A stretch of DNA of 62,435 nucleotides, counting the filler, from Sphingomonadaceae bacterium (GTDB taxonomy: Bacteria > Chloroflexota > UBA6077): the NCBI GenBank assembly GCA_050261575.1. It is 7 parts of 7 records of this genome, joined end to end, with 100 filler letters (N's around TTAATTAATTAA, not from the genome) between each part and the next. Parts side by side here need not be neighbours in the genome. Positions count along the whole stretch, not along the records: positions 1 to 22,057 come from JBLNDL010000001.1; 6 more parts are not named here. The stretch is one strand, 5' to 3'. The notes beneath the pieces are model-generated. The model saw only the letters and a program-made list of their open reading frames with translations, did not search any database and had not been told where the DNA came from. Shown here piece by piece: positions 1 through 19,307 of this stretch (positions within the stretch are counted from its first letter, which is position 1; each line of letters begins with the position of its first letter). The translations under genes and the position numbers were made by a program.

Positions 1-741
1 CGGACCATAGGGCGGCCAGGTGGTCGTTGCCTCGTTGGAGGGGATCGCCAGCACGTAGGCCTGCCTTCGGTCCTCCAGAGCCCTGCGGAGCTTCCCATCG
101 CTGCCGTAGACCTCGTCCCCGACGACCCAGGCTGCCATCACTCCAGCATCCAGGGCTCGCTGGACCATCTGGAGAGCCAGCTCGGGCTTGGTACGGTACT
201 CGGTTTCGTTTGGGATCCCTGCCGCCTTGCACCTGTCCGGGGCATCCGCCCACCCCTTGGGCAGGTAGAGGGCGCGATCGATCCCAGCGTGCCCTTTGGA
301 GCTGGCATAGCTGAGAAAGACGCCGACTTGGCAGTTGGCGATCTTGCCGAGGGTCCCACAGTACTGGCGTGCCACCCCAACCGAGTGGTTGCCCTGCTTG
401 GGAAAGCCGCTCTCATCGATGACCAGAACCCCCTCCGGGCCGCCCAACTCGCCGACAACCCACCCTCGCAACTCGTCACGGACAGCATCGGCGTCCCAGG
501 CGTAGCGGTCGAGGGTGCGCTGGATTCCGCGAGGATGGGAGTACCCAAGGTACTCGGCCAACTGCCAGCCGTTCTTGCGCTCGATGTCGGCGAGCAGCCC
601 GCGCAGGTAGTCGGCGGCGTGGCGAGCTGCCTCCCGAGGGCGAACGTGCCGGCCGAGCCGCCTCAGCGCTTCGTCCACTGTAAGCGCGGCTTCCTCGGCC
701 ACCTTGACATCACTCTCACAATTGCATCTCGGGGTTATCAT
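1..741 (-). CDS. IS701-family DDE transposase, runs off the left edge of the window
   Basis: Manual minus-strand translation from ATG 741 (SD AGGAGG) is open to position 1 and contains RKNGWQLAE, LVIDESGFPKQGNHSVGVARQYCGTLGKIANCQVGVFL and WVVGDEVYG. It is absent from the ORF track because it has no stop in the window. Confidence 0.9.
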   Translation of the reverse strand, partial: MITPRCNCESDVKVAEEAALTVDEALRRLGRHVRPREAARHAADYLRGLLADIERKNGWQLAEYLGYSHPRGIQRTLDRYAWDADAVRDELRGWVVGELGGPEGVLVIDESGFPKQGNHSVGVARQYCGTLGKIANCQVGVFLSYASSKGHAGIDRALYLPKGWADAPDRCKAAGIPNETEYRTKPELALQMVQRALDAGVMAAWVVGDEVYGSDGKLRRALEDRRQAYVLAIPSNEATTTWPPYGP

Positions 742-805
742 GGCAGTGAGCCTCCTGACTACCCTGAGTAGCAAGATCCGTGTCAAAAGGGAACTGTAAT
801 ACTAG
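1..805 (-). mobile_element. IS701-family insertion sequence, one end visible
   Basis: Transposase plus terminus ...ACTGTAATACTAG ending in CTAG (802-805). Confidence 0.75.
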
Positions 806-887: not shown

Positions 888-998
888 TCCCCTGCTTCAA
901 GAATCCGAAGTCCCCTGCTTAGGCTAAGTCGAGGGCGCCGGTGGAGTGATAATGGGGATAATCAGAATGGGGTGACAGTAGAAGAGGGCACAAAAAAG

Positions 999-1103
999 TG
1001 GCGGGGGTCAGATTTGAACTGACGACCAAGGGCTTGTGAGTATCGTGTACGTCTTGCTTCGCAATACGCACACTCCCCTGCTCTGCCGCTGAGCTACCCC
1101 GAA
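999..1103 (-). pseudogene. tRNA-Met-like copy at the att site: 33-nt insertion, CAC anticodon, first two acceptor pairs broken
   Basis: Aligns with both halves of the tRNA at 6262-6333. Insertion at 1041-1073. Confidence 0.85.
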
Positions 1104-1196
1104 CCCCAATATGTTGTGCTTGTGGGCATTCACATACACAACATACTGGTATGACAGCAAAGGGCAGGCTGCGCTGGAGTGACGGCAGGAAGGCTG

Positions 1197-1216
1197 TACA
1201 GCATCAATACAGCATC
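1197..1216 (+). repeat. Putative integrase arm-type sites, 2 x TACAGCATC
   Basis: Copies at 1197 and 1208 (11-bp period). The same 9-mer occurs three times at 6150-6180. Confidence 0.8.
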
Positions 1217-1239
1217 GACCAGGGCTGTGGGAGGAAGAG

Positions 1240-2364
1240 ATGTCCCGACGCAGCCCAGGCGAAGGTTCCATCACCCAGCGAAACAACGGTCTCTGGCAGG
1301 GCGCCCTACAGATCAACGGCAGGAGAAAGACGGTCTACGGCAAGACCAGGAGCGAAGTAGCTGAGAAGCTACGCTCGCTCACTGCTCAGGTTGCCACCTC
1401 CGGCAGGCTTCCAGACTCAGGGAAGCTCACTCTCTCCAGCTACTTCAGCGAATGGCTGAGCCAAGCCGAGGCCAGGCTACGGCCTGGCACCGTGTACAGT
1501 TATCGCGCCCTGGTGCGCTGCCACGTTCTACCGCAGCTTGGCAGCGTGAAGCTCTCCCGCCTCCAGGCTCTACACCTCACTAGGCTCTATGCTGATCTGC
1601 GACAGAAGGGGCTGAGCCCCCGCAGGGTGCAGATGGTGCACCGGCTGCTGCATAAAGCCCTTGGTGACGCCGCAAGGTGGGGGCTGCTTGCTACCAACGT
1701 GGCCGGTCTGGTGGACGGCCCCACGTGTCCCACTGAAGAGCCCGAGTTGTGGTGCCCCGAGAAGGTATCTGGCTTCGTGTCGGCACTGGAAGAGGGGAGC
1801 GGCGGGCAGTATGGTATGCTGTTCGGCTTCCTGCTGGCTTCTGGCTGCCGCGAGGGGGAAGCCTTGGGGCTACGGTGGAGCGATGTGGATTGGGAAAAGT
1901 CCGCTGTGCGAGTGGAGCGGCAGGTAACATGGGTGGACAACCAACCGGTGGAACTGCTGCCGAAGACCAGGAGCGGTGTCCGCGCTGTTTCCATCCCTTC
2001 GTGGGGCATTGGGCTGCTGCGCAAGCAGAAAGCCCAAGTGGCAGAATGGAGGTTGCGGGCTGGGGAAGGCTGGCAGGGTGGGGAGCGCGTGTTCACCACA
2101 GCCAACTGTCGTGTGCCCAGCCCCTCAAACTTGCGCAGGGCTTTCCTGGGGCTCTGCCAACGGCTGGAATTGCCAGCGGTCAGGCTGCACGATCTGCGGC
2201 ACCTTCACCTCTCCCTGCTCGCCATGAACGGAGTGCCCGTGAAAGTCGCTCAGGCGAGGGCGGGGCATTCCAGCCCCATACTTACGCTGCGAGTCTATCA
2301 GCACGTTCTCGGTGAGCCCGATAGGGAAGCGGCAGCCGCCATAGAGCGGCTGGCACTGCGGTAG
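1240..2364 (+). CDS. Tyrosine integrase (phage/ICE type)
   Basis: N-terminal RRxxGEGSI arm-binding motif. Catalytic residues in GCREGEALGLRW, PKT, HDLRH, AGHS and VYQH. Confidence 0.97.
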   Translation: MSRRSPGEGSITQRNNGLWQGALQINGRRKTVYGKTRSEVAEKLRSLTAQVATSGRLPDSGKLTLSSYFSEWLSQAEARLRPGTVYSYRALVRCHVLPQLGSVKLSRLQALHLTRLYADLRQKGLSPRRVQMVHRLLHKALGDAARWGLLATNVAGLVDGPTCPTEEPELWCPEKVSGFVSALEEGSGGQYGMLFGFLLASGCREGEALGLRWSDVDWEKSAVRVERQVTWVDNQPVELLPKTRSGVRAVSIPSWGIGLLRKQKAQVAEWRLRAGEGWQGGERVFTTANCRVPSPSNLRRAFLGLCQRLELPAVRLHDLRHLHLSLLAMNGVPVKVAQARAGHSSPILTLRVYQHVLGEPDREAAAAIERLALR

Positions 2365-2686
2365 AAAATAACTTACACTTTCGCAGAGAGGAGAAGAAAG
2401 GGCAATGACAGTCACAGCGGCCAACGAGTGCTTCATTGAGGCGACATTCAACAATGGCGTGGTTTTGATCTGCGACAACCGGGGCTTCAACTCTTCTGGC
2501 AGGACGCCGTAGGCGACCTCGCACCTTTGCATCTCGGCTTGATGTGGGCTGATCTGGCGGAGATGCAGCAGCTTGTTGCCCCCCCGTCTGCGGGCTCTCG
2601 GCTAGCATCGTAGGGTAACAGCCTGTTGATACCCTGCCCTGTGCGGGTGACAGAAGCTCGCACGGGCAGGGTACCGGCTGTGCGGT

Positions 2687-3505
2687 TTACTCTTCGCTGT
2701 ATGGTCCGCCAATGAAGCACGAGTCTTCTACAATGCCATCCAGAACGTCCAGCAGGAACGTTAGACCGGCAGCCTTGGCTTCCGCTACTCGCCGCTCTCG
2801 CTCAACTCGCTCCCTCTCTTCGGCCTGTTTCACACATTCCGGCTCCATGTCCTTCCGGCATTCTGGGCACAGTGAAGCGAACCAGGGCATGTGCCAGATA
2901 TTCCCCTTCTTGTCCATCATCTCCTTCCCGCGCCTAAAGATTCTCCGCGTTTTGCACTTGGTGCATAGCGAGCCTTCGCACAGGCACAGTACGCGGGTGA
3001 TGCTCTTTGACTCGGGGTAGTAGACTTCCCCCCTGAACTCTCCGCACATCTCGCAGACCTTCACCTTAGCGATAGCGCGATGCTCGCCATGCTGAGCCAC
3101 CCTGATCTCCACCTTTCCAGCGTCCACCTCGGTACCCTCCTGCTGGTTGCTGTTGCGGCGCAGCGTCAGTGACGGAAAGCTTAGCCTACGGCTATCAACT
3201 CGGGCTGAGAGTCTGTAAGGTCTTCTGAATACCGCCTCTTTTGGTAGGGCGGCCTGATCGCCGCTGTTGTACACATGTACGGGGTGCCTAAATCGTGTCT
3301 TGCTCCCCGCTTGTGCGAGAGCCCGCGCCCACGGCGCATGGGCCTGGATGTATGCCTTCTCCACATTGTCGGTATCGCCCGCCCAACCTCGGATCAACAG
3401 CTTCCTCCGGTAGAGCGCGAGCAAGTACGGGTCTGTTGCATACCGTTCGGCAAGCGCCTGACAAGGCGGGCAATTGCAGAACGGTTCGCTGGGGGAGGAT
3501 GCCAC
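2687..3505 (-). CDS. Hypothetical Cys-rich (multi-CxxC, probable Zn-binding) protein
   Basis: 272-aa ORF, SD AAAGGAG before GTG. Motifs CNCPPC, CEMC, CLC, CTKC, CPEC. A possible internal start near 3127 also has an SD. Confidence 0.6.
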   Translation of the reverse strand: MASSPSEPFCNCPPCQALAERYATDPYLLALYRRKLLIRGWAGDTDNVEKAYIQAHAPWARALAQAGSKTRFRHPVHVYNSGDQAALPKEAVFRRPYRLSARVDSRRLSFPSLTLRRNSNQQEGTEVDAGKVEIRVAQHGEHRAIAKVKVCEMCGEFRGEVYYPESKSITRVLCLCEGSLCTKCKTRRIFRRGKEMMDKKGNIWHMPWFASLCPECRKDMEPECVKQAEERERVERERRVAEAKAAGLTFLLDVLDGIVEDSCFIGGPYSEE

Positions 3506-3544
3506 GCTTCGACTCCTTTCTGAGCCATCAAGCGCGGCACAGCA

Positions 3545-3570
3545 GAAAACCTCCGCGCAAGTCGGAGGTT
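3545..3570 (-). terminator. Intrinsic terminator, expression platform of the riboswitch
   Basis: AACCTCCG-ACTTGCG-CGGAGGTT followed by TTCT, directly after the aptamer. Confidence 0.7.
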
Positions 3571-3670
3571 GCGCGACCTTGGTTCCCTTTCGGGCCTATC
3601 TCCCTTTCGGGACAGACACCTTGCCGTCGCAGGCAGGTTGTCGGGCGCCAGGAGCGCCGCTCTTGATAGC
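3571..3670 (-). ncRNA. SAM-I/IV riboswitch aptamer
   Basis: P1 CUAUC/GAUAG; J1/2 AAGAG; short P2 GGCGC/GCGCC; P3 GACAACCUGCC...GGCAAGGUGUC; P4 UCCC-GAAA-GGGA; P5 CCC-GAAA-GGG; PK2 between L3 UGCGAC and the 3' tail GUCGCG. Confidence 0.88.
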
Positions 3671-3741
3671 TGGTATCAGTTTGTAGGGGAAGAATACCGG
3701 CTTCCTAGTTGTGCGTCAAGCCGCCGAAAGGCGGGCCTTTG

Positions 3742-3918
3742 TTATTCGCTTTGGTCGGGGTGTCTCGCGCCCCAGATGCCGAGGGCGATGAAGGCACCGA
3801 TCACCCCAAGGCTGATCCAGTTGGGCTTGCCCTGGAAGACCTCCATGACGGTCCAAATCAGCCAAACGATGACGATGCGGCTCACCCATGGCCTTACGAT
3901 ATACCACAGAACTCTCAT
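3742..3918 (-). CDS. Small two-TM membrane protein (58 aa)
   Basis: MRVLWYIVRPW... with two hydrophobic stretches. ATGA overlap with the upstream ORF. Confidence 0.6.
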   Translation of the reverse strand: MRVLWYIVRPWVSRIVIVWLIWTVMEVFQGKPNWISLGVIGAFIALGIWGARHPDQSE

Positions 3919-4151
3919 TGCGACCTCCGGTTCTTGAGCCACCACTTCAGGTACTCGTCCTGCACTTCCGACTCCGGCTCTTTCTTGTGCAGGCACGCGG
4001 CAAGGAGCAGCCAGGCCGCAGGGACCAGTATCCAGGGTTGAGTAAGAAGCTCTCCGAAGCGGCCCCAGTCTCCTCCCAGGAAGTAGACGAAGGCCAGACC
4101 GACGAGCCACCCGATACACAGCCGAGTAATGACTTGGCCCAAGTCGTTCAT
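3915..4151 (-). CDS. Small two-TM membrane protein (78 aa)
   Basis: Strong SD AAAGGAGGT before ATG 4151. Two hydrophobic segments and a charged tail. Confidence 0.7.
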   Translation of the reverse strand: MNDLGQVITRLCIGWLVGLAFVYFLGGDWGRFGELLTQPWILVPAAWLLLAACLHKKEPESEVQDEYLKWWLKNRRSQ

Positions 4152-4514
4152 GAACTTACCTCCTTTCGACCTAATTATGTCTCCCTCTGTCAAGCGGTCG
4201 TGGCGCGTATGAGCCAGAAGATGCGCAGGCCACCAGGAACCGCTGCACGACAACCATACTTGGGTAGATCTGTTCCTCAACTGGCAGTGGTGCGCACCAT
4301 GCACCCTTCTCCCTCCTGTCTCAGAAGGCGCCTGCTGTGTCTTCGTCGAGCAGCAAAGCGGCGTGAGAAGCTCTTAGCCACGGGCTCTACTGGGTATTCC
4401 GTACCCTTTTCCATCCGTTTTCCAACAGAAATGGGGAGGATTTGAGACCTGGCTTCCCCTCGGCTGCTGGAACCGGTAAACTAAGATGCTGATGAACCTG
4501 GTGGAGGTGATGCG

Positions 4515-5081
4515 ATGCCACGATACCTGGCGATGCTGGCGCTGGCAGCGGCCACGTTCGCGGTGGGCATTGTGGTGGGGCAGGGCGGCCTGCCCGCCAA
4601 AGCCCAAGCTCCCTCTGTGGAGGAAAAGGCGGCGGCGATCAAGGCTCATCTGTTGGAGAAGATCACGGCGGTAAACGCGGAGGTGCCGCCCGAAAGGTGG
4701 AGACACATCAACGGCACCCACACGACCTATGAGCAGTATAGGGCGGAATACCTCTACAGACTCGCCTATGCTGCCAAGGATGACGCTGTATTGGGCCACT
4801 ACCTCCGGTACATGGCCCCAGCACTGCGGTACTTCTTCATCAGCGAGGACACGCTGCTGGGAGAGCGATTCGTGGATTACTTCGCTCAGCAGATGGCTGC
4901 CACCGGCGTGCCTCCGGTGGTGCCCAACTTCACTGACGAGGATTTCAAGAGGCTGGCGCCATCGGCTATGACGTTTGAGGATTTCAAGAGCTTACTACCG
5001 TGGCCGGGGACGATGTTCTACCCCAAGGTGAGCAACTGGCCGTACAGTGCTGGAGGGGCAGCCGTCTTCGGTGAGTGGTAG
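4515..5081 (+). CDS. Hypothetical exported protein
   Basis: SD GGAGGTGA and signal-peptide-like N-terminus, 188 aa. Confidence 0.75.
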   Translation: MPRYLAMLALAAATFAVGIVVGQGGLPAKAQAPSVEEKAAAIKAHLLEKITAVNAEVPPERWRHINGTHTTYEQYRAEYLYRLAYAAKDDAVLGHYLRYMAPALRYFFISEDTLLGERFVDYFAQQMAATGVPPVVPNFTDEDFKRLAPSAMTFEDFKSLLPWPGTMFYPKVSNWPYSAGGAAVFGEW

Positions 5082-5262
5082 GGCAATCTGTGGGCTTCTT
5101 AACTCCATGAGGGTAGGTACGTTCATGTTCGGCAAAGGCGAGAAAGGGAGGCCAGGGGGAGTGGTGGGCGCAAGCGCGGTCAGCCAGAGCGGAGGGCGCA
5201 AGCGCAGGTGCGGGGCCAGGCAAGCCCTGGCCCCGCTCGCCCCACACACTCCCCCACACGTG

Positions 5263-5436
5263 CTACTTCTCAAGTCTGATGTGAACTATCGAGCCCTCCA
5301 ACCGGCCTTCCGGCATCTCCTTGAGCAGCCTCCGGCCCCGCTCCAGGTACTCCGGCGGCAGCTCCTTCTGGCCCGACCAGATCTCGCGCGCTTCCTTCAG
5401 GAACGCCTCCCAGTCTTGACGCTCGGTATCATCCAT
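5263..5436 (-). CDS. Small hypothetical protein (MDDTERQDW...)
   Basis: SD GAGAGG before ATG. Charged, helical-looking 57 aa. Confidence 0.45.
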   Translation of the reverse strand: MDDTERQDWEAFLKEAREIWSGQKELPPEYLERGRRLLKEMPEGRLEGSIVHIRLEK

Positions 5437-5527
5437 TGCGCAACCTCTCCGGCATGGTCGGCGGGCGCGCCCACCCGCGCTGCCCCGCCCGTGCATGTGT
5501 CTGTGTATATGCCTTCCGTAACAGCGA

Positions 5528-5672
5528 AGCTCCCTGCTGGGAGCTGAGCTGTACATGTATCTATATCAGCCCTATCCCTATAGGGATAGGGCTGTAATGT
5601 ATATACAGTATTACCCAGTACCCTATGGGTACTGGGTATATAGTACCTGTACTGGATATATATACTATATAG
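5528..5672. repeat. AT-rich cluster of palindromes
   Basis: Perfect 28-bp palindrome 5567-5594, 12-bp stem 5612-5638, 7-bp stem 5528-5545, and TGTATATACA 5598-5607. Confidence 0.85.
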
Positions 5673-5937
5673 GGCTCTCCACAGCCCCCGCCTTGGTCGG
5701 GCGGCCTGGGCGGGGCTGATCGTACAGCCCAGCCATTCCCTCTGCCTCAAACCTCCGCAGCCAGAACCGGACGGTTACGGGAGTTGTGTCGAAGATGGCC
5801 GCAATCTCCGGCACAGTCTTTCGCTGGGCAGAGAGCAGGATCATGTGCGCCCGCTGGCTCACCCTGCCCACCTCCCGCCGCATTACTCGTCTCAATTCGC
5901 GCTGTTCCTCAGCTGTCAGCTCCCGCACGTAGATCAT
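5665..5937 (-). CDS. IS630-type helix-turn-helix protein (transposase N-terminal part only)
   Basis: RAHMILLSAQ..VPEIA..TVRFWLRRFEAEGMAGLYDQPRPGRP, with no DDE domain following. Confidence 0.75.
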   Translation of the reverse strand: MIYVRELTAEEQRELRRVMRREVGRVSQRAHMILLSAQRKTVPEIAAIFDTTPVTVRFWLRRFEAEGMAGLYDQPRPGRPTKAGAVESPI

Positions 5938-6149
5938 GGCAAAAGTGTAAGTTATTTTTCAAGCTTGGGGCTTGAAGGTGGTGTGGGCTTCTGATACCAT
6001 CTGGGTAGATCATTACCAAGTCAAGAGCCCTGGCGATGCTGTGACACTCCAGGGGCACGTCTACCAGGCTAGGGGCTGGCGACAGGCTGAGTGTAACACG
6101 GAAAAGCCCACCAGACTACTACCTGGTGGGCTCGTTTGCCTCTGGGCTG

Positions 6150-6180
6150 TACAGCATCCGTACAGCATCACTACAGCATC
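6150..6180 (+). repeat. Putative integrase arm-type sites, 3 x TACAGCATC
   Basis: Copies at 6150, 6161 and 6172. Confidence 0.8.
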
Positions 6181-6261
6181 AGGGAAGCTCGGTAGAGCGC
6201 GCTGGAGAGGCCCGATAGGGCCAACAGCGCTACTGCGAGCCCGAAAAATGCCACAAAATAG

Positions 6262-6333
6262 TGGCGGGGGTCAGATTTGAACTGACGACCAAGGGCTTAT
6301 GAGTCCCCTGCTCTACCGCTGAGCTACCCCGCC
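6262..6333 (-). tRNA. tRNA-CAT, probably elongator Met (CCA not encoded)
   Basis: GGCGGGG/CCCCGCC acceptor stem, CTCATAA loop, TTCAAAT T-loop. Extended -10 TGGTATAAT upstream. Confidence 0.93.
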
Positions 6334-6484: not shown

Positions 6485-8365
6485 CTACCTCATGAGGGTC
6501 GCGTTGGGGACGTCGCTCCCCGTGAGATCCTTGTAGGAGAGCTGCAGCAGGGCCACGCTGCGCTTGAAGTTGTGCACAGCGGCGGCCTTGCCGTCGCTGC
6601 CCTCCAGGCCGCGGACGAACAGGTAGTTGTAGATCGCGTTCTTCTGCTTGTCGTTGGCCTTGGCCACGTCGGCCCGGTCGAAGTAGGGGTGACCCTGCAC
6701 TGGCTTCACACCGGAGTCGGCGATCGCCTTCTGCAGCGTGATCAGCAGGCCCTTCACCTCGGCCTGGACGCTCTCGACCTTGCCGTTGCCGTCGTAGTCG
6801 AACCTCGACTGCAGCGCGAAGTCCTTCACTCCAGCGTGGCAGGGCTGGCAAGAGGCGGTGTACTGGAACTTGCCGTCCGGGCTCACGGTGTTGAAGCTGT
6901 GGGACCCGACCTTCAGCTTGTTGGGATCCTTGGCGTCCAGGGTGTCCGGCCACATGTGGCAGACCACGCAGGGGCCGGGCGCCGCGCCGCCGAAGAGAAC
7001 CGGGGTCTCACCGCCCTCGGGGTTGGCCACCGGTATCGTGCCGATGATCATCCCGTGGGGCGAGTTGGGCACCGGCTGGCCGTAGGTCACGCCGCCCGTG
7101 TCGGCCAGCATCTCCCCGGCCGCGCTGTAGTGCGGGAAGGAGCCCTTAACGGCGTCCTCGGCCTTGGTGCGGGCGTTGTGGCACTCGACGCAGGTTGCGG
7201 AGAGGCCGAAGTCCTTGCTCAGCCCCGCTGCCTCGACGGGCTTCCCGACGATACGGAGCTGGAACTTGTTGGCATCGCTGTGGGGATCGTGGCAGACGGA
7301 GCAGCCCACGGTGTGGGCCTCGTTGTTCCAGGCCGCCGCGTTGGTGGGGTTCTGGATGAAGGAAACGTAGCCCGCGCCGGAGTGGCACCGGACGCAATCC
7401 TGCCGGCTGGGCCCCACAGGGTAGGTCCAGGACTGCGACTCGGCGTCGGTGTGCTTGGCGGACTTGATCTCCGTGCCCTTGGTGTGGTGTCCGCCCGCGT
7501 CGTGGCACTGGCCGCACACGCCGTCGTCGAGGCTTGCCGCCATGGGCGCCCCCTTCAGGACGTGGTCCTTGGCGGGCCCGTGGCACGCCTCGCACTGGAT
7601 GTTGGCCATCTGCTGCAGGTCGACCGGCACCTTGTCCCACAGCCCGCCCTTCTGAATCTCCTTCAGGTCCGGGAACTTCCAGCCGGTCTTGGCCTGCAGG
7701 TCGCCGAATCCGCCGTTCTCGGCGCCGGGGTAGTAGCCGGTGACGTGGCAGCGGATGCACCGCTCGCCGTAGTGGCTGATGGAGGGGTTCTCGCCGCCGT
7801 TGATCTCAGCGAAGAAGATGTCGGAGTGGCCGGTCTTGGACCACTCGTGGGTGATGGTGGGATGGCACTTGAAGCAGTTCCCGGCGCCGGCGCCGATGTA
7901 CTCGCCCGCGTGGATCTGCACTGAGGCCATCGGGCTGCTGCCCGCGTCGTTGGCCAGGACGAGGTCCAGCTTGTAGGTGCCGGAGACGTCTGGGGTGAAC
8001 TTGACCACCTCGGCATCCTTGGCACTCAGAGCGGCTTTGGACGCCTTGGGGGTCGATAGGGTCCAGGTGTACTTGGTCACCGCAGCCTTGTTGGTTGCCA
8101 CGGCCCGCAGGGTGACGGGTACGGCGACGGGGACGTTGTTCAACCCGGTGGTCATCCCCTGGACCTTGGTCTCACCGTCGGCCAGGGTCCACTCCAGGAC
8201 GTTGGGATCGGTGGCCTTCGCCGTCACCGCGGCGATCTCGACGGCCGCTACCGGCTTTACCGGCTGGGGTTGCGCCTGCTGGGCCAGCACCGTTCCCGCA
8301 GAAAGGGCAAGACCCAGCAGCGTCAAGCCGGCGATGGCCAGGAGCCCTCTCGGCTTCGCTGCCAT
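6485..8365 (-). CDS. Exported nonaheme cytochrome c, paralog 1
   Basis: 9 CxxCH motifs, signal peptide, Ig/PKD-like N-terminal region. SD GGAGG places the start at 8365. Confidence 0.92.
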   Translation of the reverse strand: MAAKPRGLLAIAGLTLLGLALSAGTVLAQQAQPQPVKPVAAVEIAAVTAKATDPNVLEWTLADGETKVQGMTTGLNNVPVAVPVTLRAVATNKAAVTKYTWTLSTPKASKAALSAKDAEVVKFTPDVSGTYKLDLVLANDAGSSPMASVQIHAGEYIGAGAGNCFKCHPTITHEWSKTGHSDIFFAEINGGENPSISHYGERCIRCHVTGYYPGAENGGFGDLQAKTGWKFPDLKEIQKGGLWDKVPVDLQQMANIQCEACHGPAKDHVLKGAPMAASLDDGVCGQCHDAGGHHTKGTEIKSAKHTDAESQSWTYPVGPSRQDCVRCHSGAGYVSFIQNPTNAAAWNNEAHTVGCSVCHDPHSDANKFQLRIVGKPVEAAGLSKDFGLSATCVECHNARTKAEDAVKGSFPHYSAAGEMLADTGGVTYGQPVPNSPHGMIIGTIPVANPEGGETPVLFGGAAPGPCVVCHMWPDTLDAKDPNKLKVGSHSFNTVSPDGKFQYTASCQPCHAGVKDFALQSRFDYDGNGKVESVQAEVKGLLITLQKAIADSGVKPVQGHPYFDRADVAKANDKQKNAIYNYLFVRGLEGSDGKAAAVHNFKRSVALLQLSYKDLTGSDVPNATLMR

Positions 8366-8644
8366 GTATGGTTCCTCCCTCTCAGTTCTCCAGATGGGTG
8401 CAGGGTCGCCCTTCTGGGGTGCCGATCCCCGGCCCGGCAATGGGCGTCCCTCCTCGACGCCCATCGGGGTGTGCAGATTCAGGCGGCGGCTACGCGCTCG
8501 TGGCGGCGCTCCTCCTTTCCAAGAGGATCAGGGCTCGTCGCGTGAAGCTGTCTTCGGATCCGGGCGATAACGTCGCTGTTCTGTCTGTCGAAGGGTTCAG
8601 GGGTGCTCGTTCGCTGGGGGAGAGGACGGTGCCGACCGAATGTC

Positions 8645-8812: not shown

Positions 8813-10696
8813 CTACTGCATCAGGGTCGCGTTGGGGACGTCGCTCCCCGTGAGGTCCTTGTAGGAGAGCTGCAGCAGGGCCACGCTGCGCTTGAAGTTG
8901 TGGATCGCGTTGGCCTTGCCGTCGCTGCCCTCCAGGCCGCGGACGAACAGGTAGTTGTAGATCGCGTTCTTCTGCTTGTCGTTGGCCTTGGCCACGTCGG
9001 CTCGGTCGAAGTAGGGGTGACCCTGCACTGGCTTCACACCGGAGTCGGCGATCGCCTTCTGCAGCGTGGTCAGCAGGCCCTTCACCTCCTCCTGCACGCC
9101 CTCGACCTTGCCGTTGCCGTCGTAGTCGGCCTTGGCGGCAAGATTGAAGTCCTCCATGCCCTTGTGGCAGGACTGGCAGGACTCGGTGTACTCGAACTTG
9201 CCGTCGGGGCTGACGAGGTTGAAGGAGTGGTCGCCGACCTTGAAGCGGTTGGGATCCTTGGCGTCCTCGGGGGTCGGCCACATGTGGCAGGCCACGCAGG
9301 CGCCAGGGGTGGCCCCGCCGAAGAGGTCGGTGCCGTCGGCCGCCTTGATCGGGGCGTTGCCCACGACCATGGTATGGAAGGAGTTGGGGACGTTCCGCCC
9401 GTAGGTGACGCCGCCGATGCCGCTCAGCATCTCCCCGGCCGCGCTGTAGTGCGGGAAGGAGCCCTTAACGGCGTCCTCGGCCTTGGTGCGGGCGTTGTGG
9501 CACTCGACACAGGTTGCGGAGAGGCCGAAGTCCTTGGTTATCCCCGCTGCCTCGACCGGCTTCCCGACGATGCGGAGCTGGAACTTGTTGGCGTTGGAAT
9601 GCGGCTCGTGGCAGACGGCGCAGGAAGCGGTCTGCATGCTGTTGTCCCAGGAGGCCGGCTCCGTCGGGTTGTTGATGAAGGAGATGTAGCCGGCACCGGA
9701 GTGGCAGCGGACGCAATCCTGTCGCGACGGACCGGTGGGGTAGGTCCAGGCCTGGGAATCCTCGTCCGAGTGCTTGGCGTTCTTGAACATCTCGCCCTTG
9801 ACGTGATGCCCGCCCCCGTTGTGGCAGACGTTGCACACGCCTTCGTCGAGGCTGGCGGCCATCTTGGCGCCCTTGGTCACGTGGTCCTTGGCGGGGCCGT
9901 GGCAGTCCTCGCACTGGATGTTGGACATGTTGGCCAGCAACTCGGGAACGGCTTCCCACTGGCCCTTGCCGGTCTGGATCGCCTCGAGGGCTGGGAAGGT
10001 CCAGCCTACCTTCGCCTGGACGTCGGCGAACCCGCCGTTGCTCACGCCGGGGTTGTAGCCGGTGGTGTGGCAGCGGATGCAGCGCTCGCTGTAGTGGCTG
10101 TTGGCCGGATCGGCGCCGCCGTTGATCTCCTCTTTGAAGATCTGCGCGTGGCCGGTCTTGGACCACTCGTGGGTGATGTTGGGATGGCACTGGAAGCAGT
10201 TGCCCAACCCGGTTCCGATGTACTCGCCGGCCTGGATCTTGACGGAGGCCATCGGGCTCGCGCCGGCCTCGTTGCTGATCACCAGGTCGACCTTGTAGAT
10301 GCCGGAGACATCAGGGGTAAACTTGACCAGGGGTTCGCTGTTCGTGGTGAGGGTGGCCTTGGACTCCCGGGGTTTGGTCAGCGTCCAAGCGTACTTGGTG
10401 ACCGAGACCTTGGGGTCCGTAGGCGCGCCCTGCAGCGTTACAGGGACGCCGATGGAAACGTTGGGCAGCCCCGTGGTTCCGATCTGGACCTTGGTCTTGC
10501 CGTCGGCTAGCGTCGCCTCGATGACGTTGGGATCGGCCGGATTCGCTGCCACCGGCACGATCTCGATGGTGGCTACCGGCTTGCCGGCCTGCTGTTGCTG
10601 CGTGGTCTCGGCCGCCACCAACGTTCCCGCAGTGACGCCGAGGGCCAGCACCGTCAGACCTGCCAGGGTCAGTAGCCCTCTGGGCTTCAGTGCCAT
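8813..10696 (-). CDS. Exported nonaheme cytochrome c, paralog 2
   Basis: 9 CxxCH motifs, signal peptide, collinear with paralog 1. Confidence 0.92.
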   Translation of the reverse strand: MALKPRGLLTLAGLTVLALGVTAGTLVAAETTQQQQAGKPVATIEIVPVAANPADPNVIEATLADGKTKVQIGTTGLPNVSIGVPVTLQGAPTDPKVSVTKYAWTLTKPRESKATLTTNSEPLVKFTPDVSGIYKVDLVISNEAGASPMASVKIQAGEYIGTGLGNCFQCHPNITHEWSKTGHAQIFKEEINGGADPANSHYSERCIRCHTTGYNPGVSNGGFADVQAKVGWTFPALEAIQTGKGQWEAVPELLANMSNIQCEDCHGPAKDHVTKGAKMAASLDEGVCNVCHNGGGHHVKGEMFKNAKHSDEDSQAWTYPTGPSRQDCVRCHSGAGYISFINNPTEPASWDNSMQTASCAVCHEPHSNANKFQLRIVGKPVEAAGITKDFGLSATCVECHNARTKAEDAVKGSFPHYSAAGEMLSGIGGVTYGRNVPNSFHTMVVGNAPIKAADGTDLFGGATPGACVACHMWPTPEDAKDPNRFKVGDHSFNLVSPDGKFEYTESCQSCHKGMEDFNLAAKADYDGNGKVEGVQEEVKGLLTTLQKAIADSGVKPVQGHPYFDRADVAKANDKQKNAIYNYLFVRGLEGSDGKANAIHNFKRSVALLQLSYKDLTGSDVPNATLMQ

Positions 10697-10988
10697 GGTT
10701 GGTTCCTCCCTCCCAGTTTCCAGATGCGCGCGTGCTTGCGCCTTCGGGGTGCCGAACCCCCTGCCGGACCCGGAGGTCACCCGCGACCTCCCGCCGGGAG
10801 CGTTCCTGGAGCGGCTATGGGCTGCGCCTTCGGGCGCGTCTCCTTTCTAGATCCATTCCGGCTCTTCACGCGCTCCGGCGGGGTCGCCGGGATGGGCTTC
10901 GAGCCGGAGGATAGCCGGGGATTGGGGGATCCTTGCGTTGCCGGGACGCCGTTGCGGGATTATTCCCCTGGTTCAGCAAGGTGGTGCC

Positions 10989-19232: not shown

Positions 19233-19307
19233 GGGCCCATAGCTCAGCGGCAGAGCGGGCGGCTCATAACCGCTTGGTCCCTGGTTCGAATCCGGGTGGG
19301 CCCACCA
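19233..19307 (+). tRNA. tRNA-CAT, probably Ile2 (lysidine type)
   Basis: Cloverleaf with GGCGG-CTCATAA-CCGCT and encoded CCA. TATAAT at 19214. Confidence 0.93.

Follow-up and report, generated by a model that had tools for sequence, protein, structure and literature searches.

Control of methionine and SAM genes is the textbook role of SAM riboswitches, and in Firmicutes and other bacteria the S-box or SAM-I regulon (RF00162) comprises genes for methionine, cysteine and SAM. The OFF logic of that regulon, exerted via a terminator or via masking of the SD sequence, is shared by the locus described here, and actinomycete relatives of its cargo gene carry the SAM-I class itself (loci L017 and L031); to our knowledge, the Cys-rich cargo family is not among the members of the S-box regulon. 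A riboswitch-controlled defence gene carried by a prophage has reportedly been found in Clostridioides difficile, namely phage-encoded AbiF (bioRxiv 10.1101/2025.04.15.648962). At the level of the title of that report, to which the comparison is confined, it sets a precedent for a defence gene on a prophage being controlled by RNA; the regulatory RNA and the protein are different ones. Also relevant in this context are lambda Ral and Rac Lar, the restriction-alleviation proteins of prophages, and T3 SAMase, a phage SAM lyase. The likeness may be one of idea only, in that these are small accessory proteins of phages and prophages acting on SAM-dependent DNA modification, and they illustrate why a signal of SAM shortage could matter to mobile DNA.

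Closely comparable is the SAM-I/IV riboswitch on metK (RF01725), a variant of SAM-I and SAM-IV described by Weinberg et al. (2010, PMC2864571), whose P2, according to that article, is without the internal loop of SAM-I and SAM-IV. A riboswitch of this class was found in the window, i.e., the whole stretch of DNA analysed (62,435 nucleotides). In the following, C1 denotes the window locus, C6 the second Cys-rich locus and C37 the metK locus of the same genome (G000); L-numbered loci are those of relatives, and L008a and L008b are the metK aptamer and the Cys-gene aptamer within L008. The leader in the window resembles the SAM-I/IV leader of its own metK in promoter, plain P2, PK-2, terminator and post-terminator segment, but it differs in its cargo, not a SAM or methionine gene but an unannotated zinc-type protein together with a phage-type domain, both carried by an integrative element, and in its aptamer, which is nearer to that of an orthologous cargo elsewhere (L008b, 85% identity) than to that of its own metK (72%). 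Overall, we read the locus as a SAM-I/IV OFF switch on the cassette of a tRNA-Met element, with a zinc protein made at low SAM that probably takes part in phage-host conflict, and assign to this reading as a whole a probability of roughly 0.5.

The Leader and Its Expression Platform

The elements of the leader, in the order of transcription, are the following.

3691..3719, minus strand: promoter-like site TTGACG-17 nt-TATTCT, sigma-70-like, about 17 nt before the aptamer
3569..3674, minus strand: SAM-I/IV aptamer, from covariance model, covariation and sequence reading
3543..3576, minus strand: expression platform, two overlapping hairpins and a U-tract
3523..3540, minus strand: post-terminator segment GUGCCGCGCUUGAUGGCU, 18 nt, complementary to the 5' half of the aptamer, with the SD/start region as alternative partner
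3503..3519, minus strand: SD AAAGGAG and GTG start of the first frame, N-domain homology beginning at residue 5-9 of the frame

The promoter-like site agrees with the consensus at 9 of 12 positions; one such site was found versus 0.7 expected in shuffles, and TTGAC(G/A) stands at the equivalent place in the metK and C6 leaders. The initial annotation had claimed a complete SAM-I/IV fold with a compensatory change in P3, and had named a search with the Rfam SAM-I/IV model as a check. With cmscan, RF01725 (clan CL00012) matched the minus strand of the window at 3569-3674 with 60.2 bits, the gathering score being 41.1, along model positions 1-99 of 99 and not truncated (E 1.9e-7 for the whole window, 1.8e-9 in a 601-base sub-search), which bears out the assignment. 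The aptamer consists of P1, a plain P2 hairpin (GGCGC..GCGCC in the alignment to the model), P3, an extra UCCC-GAAA-GGGA hairpin and, after P1, a GCCC-GAAA-GGG hairpin, and the joining regions of P1, P2 and P3 are the conserved ones. PK-2, which lies outside the covariance-model score, was read from the sequence as six pairs, one of them G-U, between the P3 loop (UGCGAC) and the 3' tail (GUCGCG); the same complementarity is present in the C37, C6 and L008 leaders. In the alignment of eight aptamers, the P3 pair at columns 53 and 63 is G-C in four and C-G in two, the window and L008b, so that the compensatory change is indeed there, and double changes occur at 14 of the 30 predicted pairs.

The platform comprises an antiterminator-type hairpin, CGCGCAA/UUGCGCG at 3576-3553, and a terminator hairpin, AACCUCCG/CGGAGGUU at 3570-3548; the latter borders directly on UUUUCUG and is the one selected in the MFE structure. 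A GC-rich hairpin with a U-tract, as found here, is the hallmark of a terminator-type OFF platform; that the two hairpins would exclude each other, and how they would be linked to PK-2, is deduced from the overlap of their coordinates. Terminator and alternative hairpin are common to the leaders of metK (C37), C6, L008a and L008b, L009 and L011. The SD core GGAG occupies 3516-3513, and the start codon GTG (3505-3503) follows the U-tract at a distance of about 38 nt, in agreement with the earlier description of a terminator followed some 40 nt later by SD and start. In the centroid fold, the post-terminator segment pairs with the aptamer; the duplex has a dG of -30.4 kcal/mol, reached by 0 of 300 shuffles, and it is conserved in five of six leaders, with values from -22 to -30 kcal/mol that 0-2 of 300 shuffles reach. 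This architecture favours the view, put forward at the outset, that the gene is expressed when SAM falls. As judged from sequence, control of the cassette by a SAM OFF switch is very likely, and the riboswitch may be expected to respond to SAM.

One Frame or Two Genes

Downstream of the leader, the window holds a single long frame that spans the features below.

2687..3505, minus strand: 272-aa open frame as in the window, consisting of N-domain, linker and C-domain
3281..3493, minus strand: N-domain, residues 5-75, with CxCxxC and then LLxRGWAG...AYxxAHAxWA, four helices
3228: base absent in the contigs of three other runs, from a contig comparison of four runs
3125..3141, minus strand: internal SD AGGAGG, 8 nt, and GTG, the Cys-rich protein's own start and the start of P0001
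2687..3127, minus strand: Cys-rich C-domain gene, 146 aa, from core motif and model

The frame had been described initially as a 272-aa multi-CxxC ORF. It does exist in the window, but it hinges on base 3228, and the preferred reading of the ORF is a pair of genes or the product of their recent fusion. An exhaustive homologue search resolved it into two unrelated domains; that search also found relatives, and a standard homologue search with the whole 272-aa ORF returned none because the relatives are half its length. The base at 3228 is absent in X5 (2.3/2.3), X6 (6.3/6.3) and X7 (3.2/3.2), which come from three other studies, as against X4 (0/6.36); the difference is seen in a single contig of low depth (2.3-6.3) for each run. 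Without this base, the first frame stops at 3181-3183 after 107 aa and leaves the Cys-rich gene on its own, the products being a phage-type helical protein of 107 aa and an 8-Cys/1-His protein of 146 aa. Also indicative of two genes are the stand-alone ortholog of the C-domain and the public gene call P0001, which is 146 aa long and starts at GTG 3127.

The N-domain, modelled with a pLDDT of 90-96 in 10-residue blocks covering residues 11-70, occurs elsewhere as a stand-alone protein of 60-130 aa, in one case in a phage early operon. The C-domain has the core CxxCGE(F/Y)RG...CLC(E/D)GxxCxxC...WHxPWF...CxxC, after which come a long helix and, at the C terminus, a GGPYSEE tail; its nearly invariant residues are C25, C28, C48, C50, C55, C58, H79, C87 and C90. 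It is probable from this sequence that the 146-aa protein binds two zinc ions.

No resemblance to methionine, sulfur or SAM enzymes had been noticed before, and in line with this the 272-aa ORF matched no family in Pfam-A, PHROG or NCBIfam. The relatives gave sub-threshold rows at chance level when compared with profile families, and none of the eight relatives in databases has a Pfam domain or a name beyond 'hypothetical protein'. Structure prediction, another check that had been suggested, yielded a confident model of the C-domain (pLDDT 87.3) and no clear fold match. Foldseek returned nothing at E <= 0.001 for this model against PDB and BFVD, nor for the N-domain model against PDB. A wide PDB fold search with the C-domain model had a best Z of 4.9, covering the C-terminal helix only, and a narrower one a best Z of 4.4 with no clear match; leads from the ESM Atlas all stayed below 0.9. 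Profile comparison with PDB produced weak matches to the zinc-ribbon region of Cas12g (E 0.0015) and to bL32 (E 0.02), and the fold searches gave no enzyme-like fold match for the Cys-rich protein. A literature search, with subscription journals outside its range, revealed no report of the Cys-rich family and none of defence islands with SAM riboswitches. By these sequence comparisons, the Cys-rich family is an undescribed one.

Recurrence of the Cys-Rich Cargo behind SAM Riboswitches

Four SAM-clan riboswitches are present in the genome, located at metK (C37), at the mtnA/MTA-phosphorylase operon (SAM-I, 81.8 bits) and at two Cys-rich genes. The second of these genes, a paralog at C6:31468-31938 with 36% identity over 137 columns (E 5.5e-17), is thus likewise placed behind a SAM riboswitch. 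Overall, in a family with 234 representatives, a SAM-clan aptamer is directly upstream of the Cys-rich gene in 9 of 15 judgeable loci (C1, C6, L008, L009, L011, L015, L017, L018 and L031), a tally that includes both G000 loci and excludes L010 and L012, which have less than 170 nt of upstream sequence. That homologs keep the aptamer, as had been anticipated, is therefore seen at these nine loci; the available upstream DNA of the other six (L013, L014, L029, L030, L032 and L033) has no riboswitch, and the gene of L014 follows lepA in an unremarkable part of the chromosome. L019 and L020 were dropped as relatives, their matches extending over 16-30 residues only (E 6e-4). Before the relatives in actinomycetes, the aptamer belongs to the SAM-I class (L017, 52.4 bits; L031, 50.8 bits). 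Only the Cys-rich part, not the N-domain, is linked to riboswitches elsewhere.

The aptamers group by downstream gene and not by genome: as the window aptamer goes with L008b, so the metK aptamer of C37 is 85% identical to the metK aptamer L008a. A conserved unit of riboswitch and cargo is highly probable. It could be argued that the leader is a mere passenger, copied from metK and driving whatever landed behind it without a selected link to the cargo. In this respect, the C1 and L011 leaders retain a terminal SD and start codon that closely resemble those of metK (MATS.. in metK, MASS.. in C1, a 10-codon MATPTLPRAP-stop in L011), and because of this resemblance part of either leader is taken to be a copy of a metK leader. 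As an account of the C1 aptamer, recent copying from the metK leader of the same genome was discarded (72% vs 85%); for the SD/start end of the C1 leader it was kept. The passenger explanation is nevertheless hard to credit, given that the link holds in 9 of 15 loci and for two aptamer classes, SAM-I/IV and SAM-I, that there are several types of platform, mostly terminators, with the SD next to P1 in L017, and that the aptamers sort with their cargo across organisms. Small as the sample is, it already suggests that the family stands behind SAM aptamers much more often than chance would have it.

In L008 and L009, the Cys-rich gene follows directly on metK, each with its own SAM-I/IV aptamer; the metK genes concerned are of the housekeeping type and 82-83% identical to metK of this genome. 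Such an arrangement would suit a factor of SAM homeostasis, i.e., a zinc protein that works with MetK or with the methionine/SAM pathway as regulator, protector or assembly factor, and that would be a little-known member of the SAM regulon, sometimes carried by mobile elements. The position after metK fits a function in conflict equally well. Also in keeping with homeostasis are the terminator, post-terminator segment and metK-like SD and start that the leaders share, and the fact that all other SAM-clan riboswitches here control SAM or methionine-salvage genes. On the other hand, the family is sporadic, with an occurrence in 1 of 401 sampled genomes of this phylum and in 6 of 401 from the class to which G401 belongs, unlike a core part of a pathway; neither copy in this genome is near metK, and both are in integrase-bearing islands; and even in L008, fragments of an integrase, IstB and a recombinase surround metK. 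On balance, a homeostasis factor appears unlikely, and a cargo of mobile DNA that probably serves in phage-host conflict is preferred.

The tRNA-Met Element and Related Islands

The cassette is part of an element of about 5.2 kb (approximately 1042-6245) with a tyrosine integrase and tRNA-Met repeats at its flanks, which are defined as follows.

1240..2364, plus strand: tyrosine integrase (PF00589 1.9e-14, PF14659 2e-10, phrog_1 3e-58)
982..1101, minus strand: left repeat, tRNA-Met copied almost in full but decayed, with an insert of 33 nt and the anticodon CAT>CAC
6245..6333, minus strand: right repeat and intact tRNA-Met (CAT), the tRNA-Met itself at 6261-6333
1192..1216, plus strand: TACAGCATC-type repeats, family D2, also at 6145-6180, three copies of 84-100%

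Direct repeats bound the element, 982-1041 with 6245-6304 (60 nt, 92%) and 1074-1101 with 6304-6331 (28 nt, 96%), and no tRNA was called by the tRNA scan in the left copy. An integrase with direct repeats at both ends is what characterizes tRNA-targeting elements of the tyrosine-recombinase type, and the initial placement of the element in tRNA-Met is confirmed by it. The TACAGCATC-type repeats, which lie immediately within the left end (1192..1216) and within the right end (6145-6180), are candidate arm sites of the integrase. Neither excision joints nor an empty site were seen in the contigs of four runs, contigs being prone to drop rare forms.

Integrases are located beside the Cys-rich gene in C1, C6 and L017. 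L018 is flanked by SoFic (6e-117) and PDC-S41 (4.9e-241), and in C6 there are Type ISP R-M, GmrSD and DUF4062 at 8-17 kb upstream of the gene. The expectation that homologs lie in mobile or defence DNA is borne out by these integrases, tRNAs, SoFic, PDC-S41 and Type ISP R-M, and the family is an accessory gene of such DNA. No DNA methyltransferase is found beside the gene in C1, L008, L017, L018 or L029-L032; among nine loci scanned for such enzymes, C6 is the only one with a methyltransferase in the vicinity, at a distance of about 8 kb. IMG/VR yielded no relative with the patterns used, and a further pattern detected no related locus in genome contigs. In PADLOC-DB 2.0.0 (2023) neither the ORF nor its paralog was matched, nor were P0002 and P0111, and P0125 gave a weak DrmC row (E 0.0032, 15.9 bits). 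The proposal of a defence or toxin module, or of a trigger for the element, drew no support from the analysis, PADLOC included.

Such a trigger would mean that the N-domain, the zinc protein or both act as antirepressor, excision or early-gene factor responding to SAM starvation. The N-domain does occur in a phage early operon in L026, where it directly follows genes for a CI-like repressor and a Cro-like protein; in L022 its neighbour is a sigma-like phage regulator, and in L023 an integrase; the cassette adjoins int in C1 and L017, and the element retains both repeats and the candidate arm sites. However, the riboswitch-linked C-domain is found also behind metK and flanked by defence genes, with no integrase in the vicinity, and N-domain genes elsewhere are without a riboswitch; the failure to see an excision junction in the four runs counts against a trigger as well but proves little. 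Taken together, a role in the life cycle of the element is decidedly improbable, and the reading of the zinc protein as a product of SAM shortage engaged in conflict is retained.

Proposed Mode of Action and Its Significance

With SAM bound, P1 and PK-2 (UGCGAC with GUCGCG) would hold the tail, whereby the CGCGCAA/UUGCGCG hairpin would be blocked and the terminator AACCUCCG/CGGAGGUU-UUUUCUG would then halt transcription. At low SAM, the tail would build the alternative hairpin and transcription would read through; the 18-nt post-terminator segment GUGCCGCGCUUGAUGGCU would then pair with the 5' half of the aptamer and not with the SD/start region, and since it leaves this region, translation would be freed as well. 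A second, translational layer of control is suggested by this arrangement, and the two-layer platform, terminator plus long-range anti-aptamer, would be common to the cassette and to metK. The cassette is predicted to yield a phage-type helical N-domain protein and the 146-aa zinc protein with eight Cys and one His, which one extra base would fuse into the 272-aa frame in this genome. The conserved cargo is the zinc protein, recurrent as it is behind SAM riboswitches of two classes.

We judge the zinc protein to be a non-enzymatic binding or regulatory protein that would be made only at SAM shortage. Its role probably lies in phage-host conflict over SAM, either in connection with methylation-based immunity or with phage SAM depletion; assigning it a conflict or defence-related function in general is done here tentatively. 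A bolder and unlikely extension is that the SAM riboswitch serves mobile and defence islands as a sensor of infection or counter-defence, opened by the collapse of SAM. A phage SAM lyase would then disarm methylation-based immunity, the switch would open and the small zinc protein would be made, which might block the invader's SAM-degrading or MetK-inhibiting protein, halt restriction of unmethylated host DNA, or stop the infected cell.

What is new is that the SAM riboswitch clan, which is among those understood best, is tied, in several lineages and with two aptamer classes, to an unannotated family of zinc proteins found in the company of integrases, tRNA sites and defence genes. At its most modest, the finding would extend the SAM regulon by a new member that can be tested. 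A functional link, if there is one, would represent a new response to low SAM, provide a ready inducer for experiments on the family, and join riboswitch biology to current research into methylation-based immunity and the SAM lyases of phages. Should the sensor reading be true, a metabolite riboswitch would act as an immune trigger, with the zinc proteins as a new family of effectors.

The C1 element and its aptamer

C1, the window's first 22,057 bases, is one contig of a genome of 3.72 Mb in 103 contigs. The features described in the initial annotation are all present on it, well beyond chance: the integrative element in tRNA-Met is bounded by tRNA-Met repeats at both ends and carries a tyrosine integrase, the SAM-I/IV fold is matched over the full length of the RF01725 model (cmscan: 60.2 bits, where the gathering score is 41.1; E 1.9e-7), and the aptamer is followed by the terminator, SD and 272-aa ORF that had been proposed.

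Features of the C1 element and its leader
982-1041 and 1074-1101 (-): left tRNA-Met repeats
1240-2364 (+): tyrosine integrase
GTG 3505 to 2687 (-): 272-aa frame, the ORF behind the riboswitch
3516-3513 (-): SD GGAG, serving the GTG at 3505
3523-3540 (-): post-terminator segment, complementary to the aptamer 5' half
3570-3548 (-): terminator hairpin AACCUCCG/CGGAGGUU running into UUUUCUG, 3' of the aptamer
3576-3553 (-), scan coordinates: hairpin CGCGCAA/UUGCGCG, 3' of the aptamer, overlapping the terminator hairpin
3569-3674 (-): SAM-I/IV aptamer (RF01725 match)
3719-3691 (-): promoter-like TTGACG-17-TATTCT, 5' of the aptamer
6245-6331 (-): right tRNA-Met repeat
6261-6333 (-): intact tRNA-Met

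The compensatory change noted in P3 holds up in an alignment of eight aptamers, where the pair is G-C in four and C-G in two, and compensatory (double) changes occur at 14 of 30 pairs. The C1 riboswitch itself belongs to a known class and is unremarkable within it.

The left repeat (982-1101, minus strand) is almost a whole second tRNA-Met, with 33 nt inserted immediately 5' of the anticodon, the anticodon CAT altered to CAC and the 5' acceptor end changed; neither ARAGORN nor Rfam calls a tRNA there, and the repeat is a displaced copy that has decayed or else a gene with an unusual interruption. Just inside both element ends (1192-1216 and 6145-6180) lie short direct repeats of the TACAGCATC type, candidate arm-type integrase binding sites, which, if so, would suggest that the element is still recombination-competent. 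A 90-aa IS630-type HTH fragment (5665-5937, minus strand) lies within the element, and a DDE_5 transposase (3.5e-58; 1-786, minus strand) is cut by the contig start. Just outside the element sit tandem paralogs of ~655 aa (6485-8464 and 8813-10780, minus strand) with many CxxCH motifs and, by eye, the look of multihaem cytochromes, and C1 has a second tRNA-Met at 19233-19307. The window is made up of C1, C2, C3, C4, C9, C11 and a piece matching C13/C39; from 22058 on it consists of separate contigs joined by N runs, and features there are unlinked to the C1 element.

Recurrence of the riboswitch with the Cys-rich gene

The link between riboswitch and Cys-rich gene is far above chance, since the genome has just four SAM-clan aptamers in 3.7 Mb, yet it is not universal. 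That homologs would keep the aptamer was borne out at 9 of the 15 judgeable loci, or 8 of 14 if the near-duplicates L008 and L009 are counted once. The positive loci comprise both loci of this genome (C1 and contig C6, SAM-I/IV), the metagenome loci L008, L009, L011 and L015 with SAM-I/IV upstream of the relative, L018 with SAM-I/IV, the actinomycete MAG locus L017 with a SAM-I aptamer (52.4 bits) whose end is 18 nt upstream of the match, and L031 (SAM-I, 50.8 bits), one of five further loci from 400 sampled genomes of the actinomycete class. Both credible relatives in the species-genome collection (L017, L018) are thus positive. Six loci (L013, L014, L029, L030, L032, L033) show no SAM aptamer in the sequence available and were judged negative; the relative in L032 has in-frame stops, and that in L033 is half a domain within a long frame. 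L010 and L012, with less than 170 nt upstream, stood outside the tally, and L019 and L020 were dropped from it.

By their sequences, the aptamer and its cargo have travelled together: the aptamer of C1 shares 85% identity with the Cys-gene aptamer of L008, in another organism, versus 72% with that of its own genome's metK; the two metK aptamers are 85% alike. That the leader is a mere passenger without meaning is considered highly improbable. The leaders of C1 and L011 resemble that of metK at their 3' ends, over the SD, the start and the first codons, which suggests that the Cys-gene leader first arose as a copy of a metK leader. In L011, an SD and GTG behind the SAM-I/IV leader (1650-1685) open a 10-codon frame, MATPTLPRAP-stop, which resembles a metK start, and the Cys-rich gene, split over two frames, follows ~370 nt further on. 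In L008 and L009 the Cys-rich gene lies directly 3' of metK. A role of the protein as a helper of MetK or of SAM homeostasis is an alternative that we regard as unlikely. The genome has three MetK-like genes, on C37, C93 and C70, the latter two 49% and 40% identical to the first, and of these the C37 gene alone carries a SAM-I/IV leader.

Leader design and control logic

The inventory of the genome comprises three SAM-I/IV aptamers and one SAM-I aptamer, with no SAM-IV aptamer found. The SAM-I aptamer precedes methylthioribose-1-phosphate-isomerase-like and MTA-phosphorylase-like genes (named by eye from translations), and the SAM-I/IV aptamers precede metK on C37, the ORF studied here on C1 and a paralog of its C-terminal domain on C6. 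One design is common to all three SAM-I/IV leaders: the 3' tail GGUCGCGCA, which has two possible partners, the P3 loop (PK-2) and UUGCGCG in the terminator region, is followed by the terminator and then by a segment complementary to the aptamer 5' half. The duplex of this segment with the aptamer has a dG of -30.4 kcal/mol (C1) or -29.1 kcal/mol (metK leader). Shuffled sequences reached the observed value in 0-2 of 300 cases for five of six leaders tested, and in 32 of 300 for the weaker C6 leader. In the minimum-free-energy fold of the C1 leader the segment pairs with the SD and start codon, and in the centroid fold with the aptamer. The segment is common to the metK and Cys-gene SAM-I/IV leaders of the lineage (also the L016 metK leader, L008 and L011), and it may constitute a second, translational layer of these riboswitches.

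Judged from these alternative pairings, SAM-bound leader RNA would terminate transcription and unbound RNA would allow read-through, after which the long-range pairing would hold the aptamer open and keep the ribosome site free. The control logic encoded in the leader is clear: the cassette would be made when SAM is low.

One frame or two genes

Searched exhaustively with HMMER, 1.84 billion representatives yielded 234 relatives of the 272-aa ORF at E <= 0.001. In the listed 150, matches confined to the N-domain (residues ~5-95) number 108 and those confined to the Cys-rich C-domain (~125-250) 42, and none covers both. A two-gene operon is the likely ancestral state on sequence grounds, because a stand-alone C-domain ortholog exists (148 aa, 66% identical, with the identical terminus NSCFIGGPYSEE), the public gene call for the C1 locus, P0001, comprises just the 146-aa C-domain, an internal GTG at 3127 has an AGGAGG 8 nt upstream, and some contigs lack base 3228. 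Contigs of four public runs were compared with the element. Three of the runs, which come from three further studies, each have one contig without this base and with 0, 0 and 3 other letter differences; the remaining run, which shares its study with the likely source, agrees with the window. Without the base, the first frame is 107 aa long with its stop at 3181-3183, which leaves the Cys-rich part as a gene of its own, 54 nt further on. The 272-aa frame is likely a local fusion, and an error is ranked as less likely; fusion or error alike, both parts sit behind the riboswitch.

The N-domain, with the motifs CxCxxC, LLxRGWAG and AYxxAHAxWA, is predicted to form four helices, with pLDDT at 90-96 for the 10-residue blocks across residues 11-70, and elsewhere occurs as a stand-alone protein of 60-130 aa. 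Of 400 other genomes in the phylum, two have it, adjoining sigma-like and HTH phage genes in L022 and an integrase in L023, with no riboswitch at either locus. On a 90-kb IMG/VR phage contig (L026) it lies in an early operon, downstream of a CI-like repressor gene and a Cro-like gene. As the cassette's role, triggering the element's life cycle is a further alternative, and a rather improbable one.

Gene neighbourhoods

The C-domain family occurs sporadically: 1 of 401 sampled genomes of this phylum has it, as do 6 of 401 from the actinomycete class. Its neighbours are as follows.

Neighbours of C-domain loci
C1: integrase, tRNA-Met, IS630-like fragment
C6: integrase, M23 peptidase, 693-aa unknown protein, tRNA-Pro; further upstream a Type ISP restriction-modification gene, GmrSD, DUF4062, transposases
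L017: integrase, terminase-like fragment
L018: SoFic (6e-117) and PDC-S41 (4.9e-241), one on each side
L008: tRNA cluster; integrase, IstB and recombinase fragments (named by eye from translations)
L032: tRNA, T5orf172-type gene
L014: ordinary chromosomal DNA after lepA (by eye, from translation)

Among the nine loci scanned for DNA methyltransferases, C6 alone has one nearby. There, ~12001-32166 (L004, L005) form an island adjoining tRNA-Pro with the riboswitch-controlled paralog at its end; it also holds an AAA_25/primase-like gene and DUF4145, and its Type ISP gene encodes 1250 aa.

The Cys-rich protein and its putative role

Eight cysteines and one histidine are nearly invariant in the C-domain (CxxCGE(Y/F)RG...CLC(D/E)GxxCxxC...WHxPxF...CxxC). 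Its AlphaFold model is confident (pLDDT 87.3), with six short strands, a 33-residue helix and a less well predicted tail, and close relatives have GP(Y/F)xE(E/G/D) at or near the C-terminus. The family has no match in Pfam, PHROGs, NCBIfam or PADLOC, no named member among the database relatives checked and no clear fold match; its profile makes weak contact with the zinc ribbons of Cas12g and bL32. One relative, P0008, ends in ...GPFSEGWPSPGAKNDDPDDIPF, with a final DDIPF that resembles the acidic DDDIPF tip of bacterial SSB; in this single member it hints, as a lead only, at docking onto genome-maintenance proteins that bind the SSB tail. The small size, the cysteine-built core and the terminal tail conserved in the close subfamily favour a binding or regulatory role over an enzymatic one.

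The supplements of PMC2864571 list genes adjoining SAM-I/IV examples and may be relevant here; these aside, neither the cargo family nor a recurrent association of it with SAM aptamers in mobile and defence DNA was found in the literature searched. Since integrases and defence genes accompany the gene and it would respond to SAM, the role we favour, with a probability of roughly 0.45, is one in phage-host conflict over SAM.
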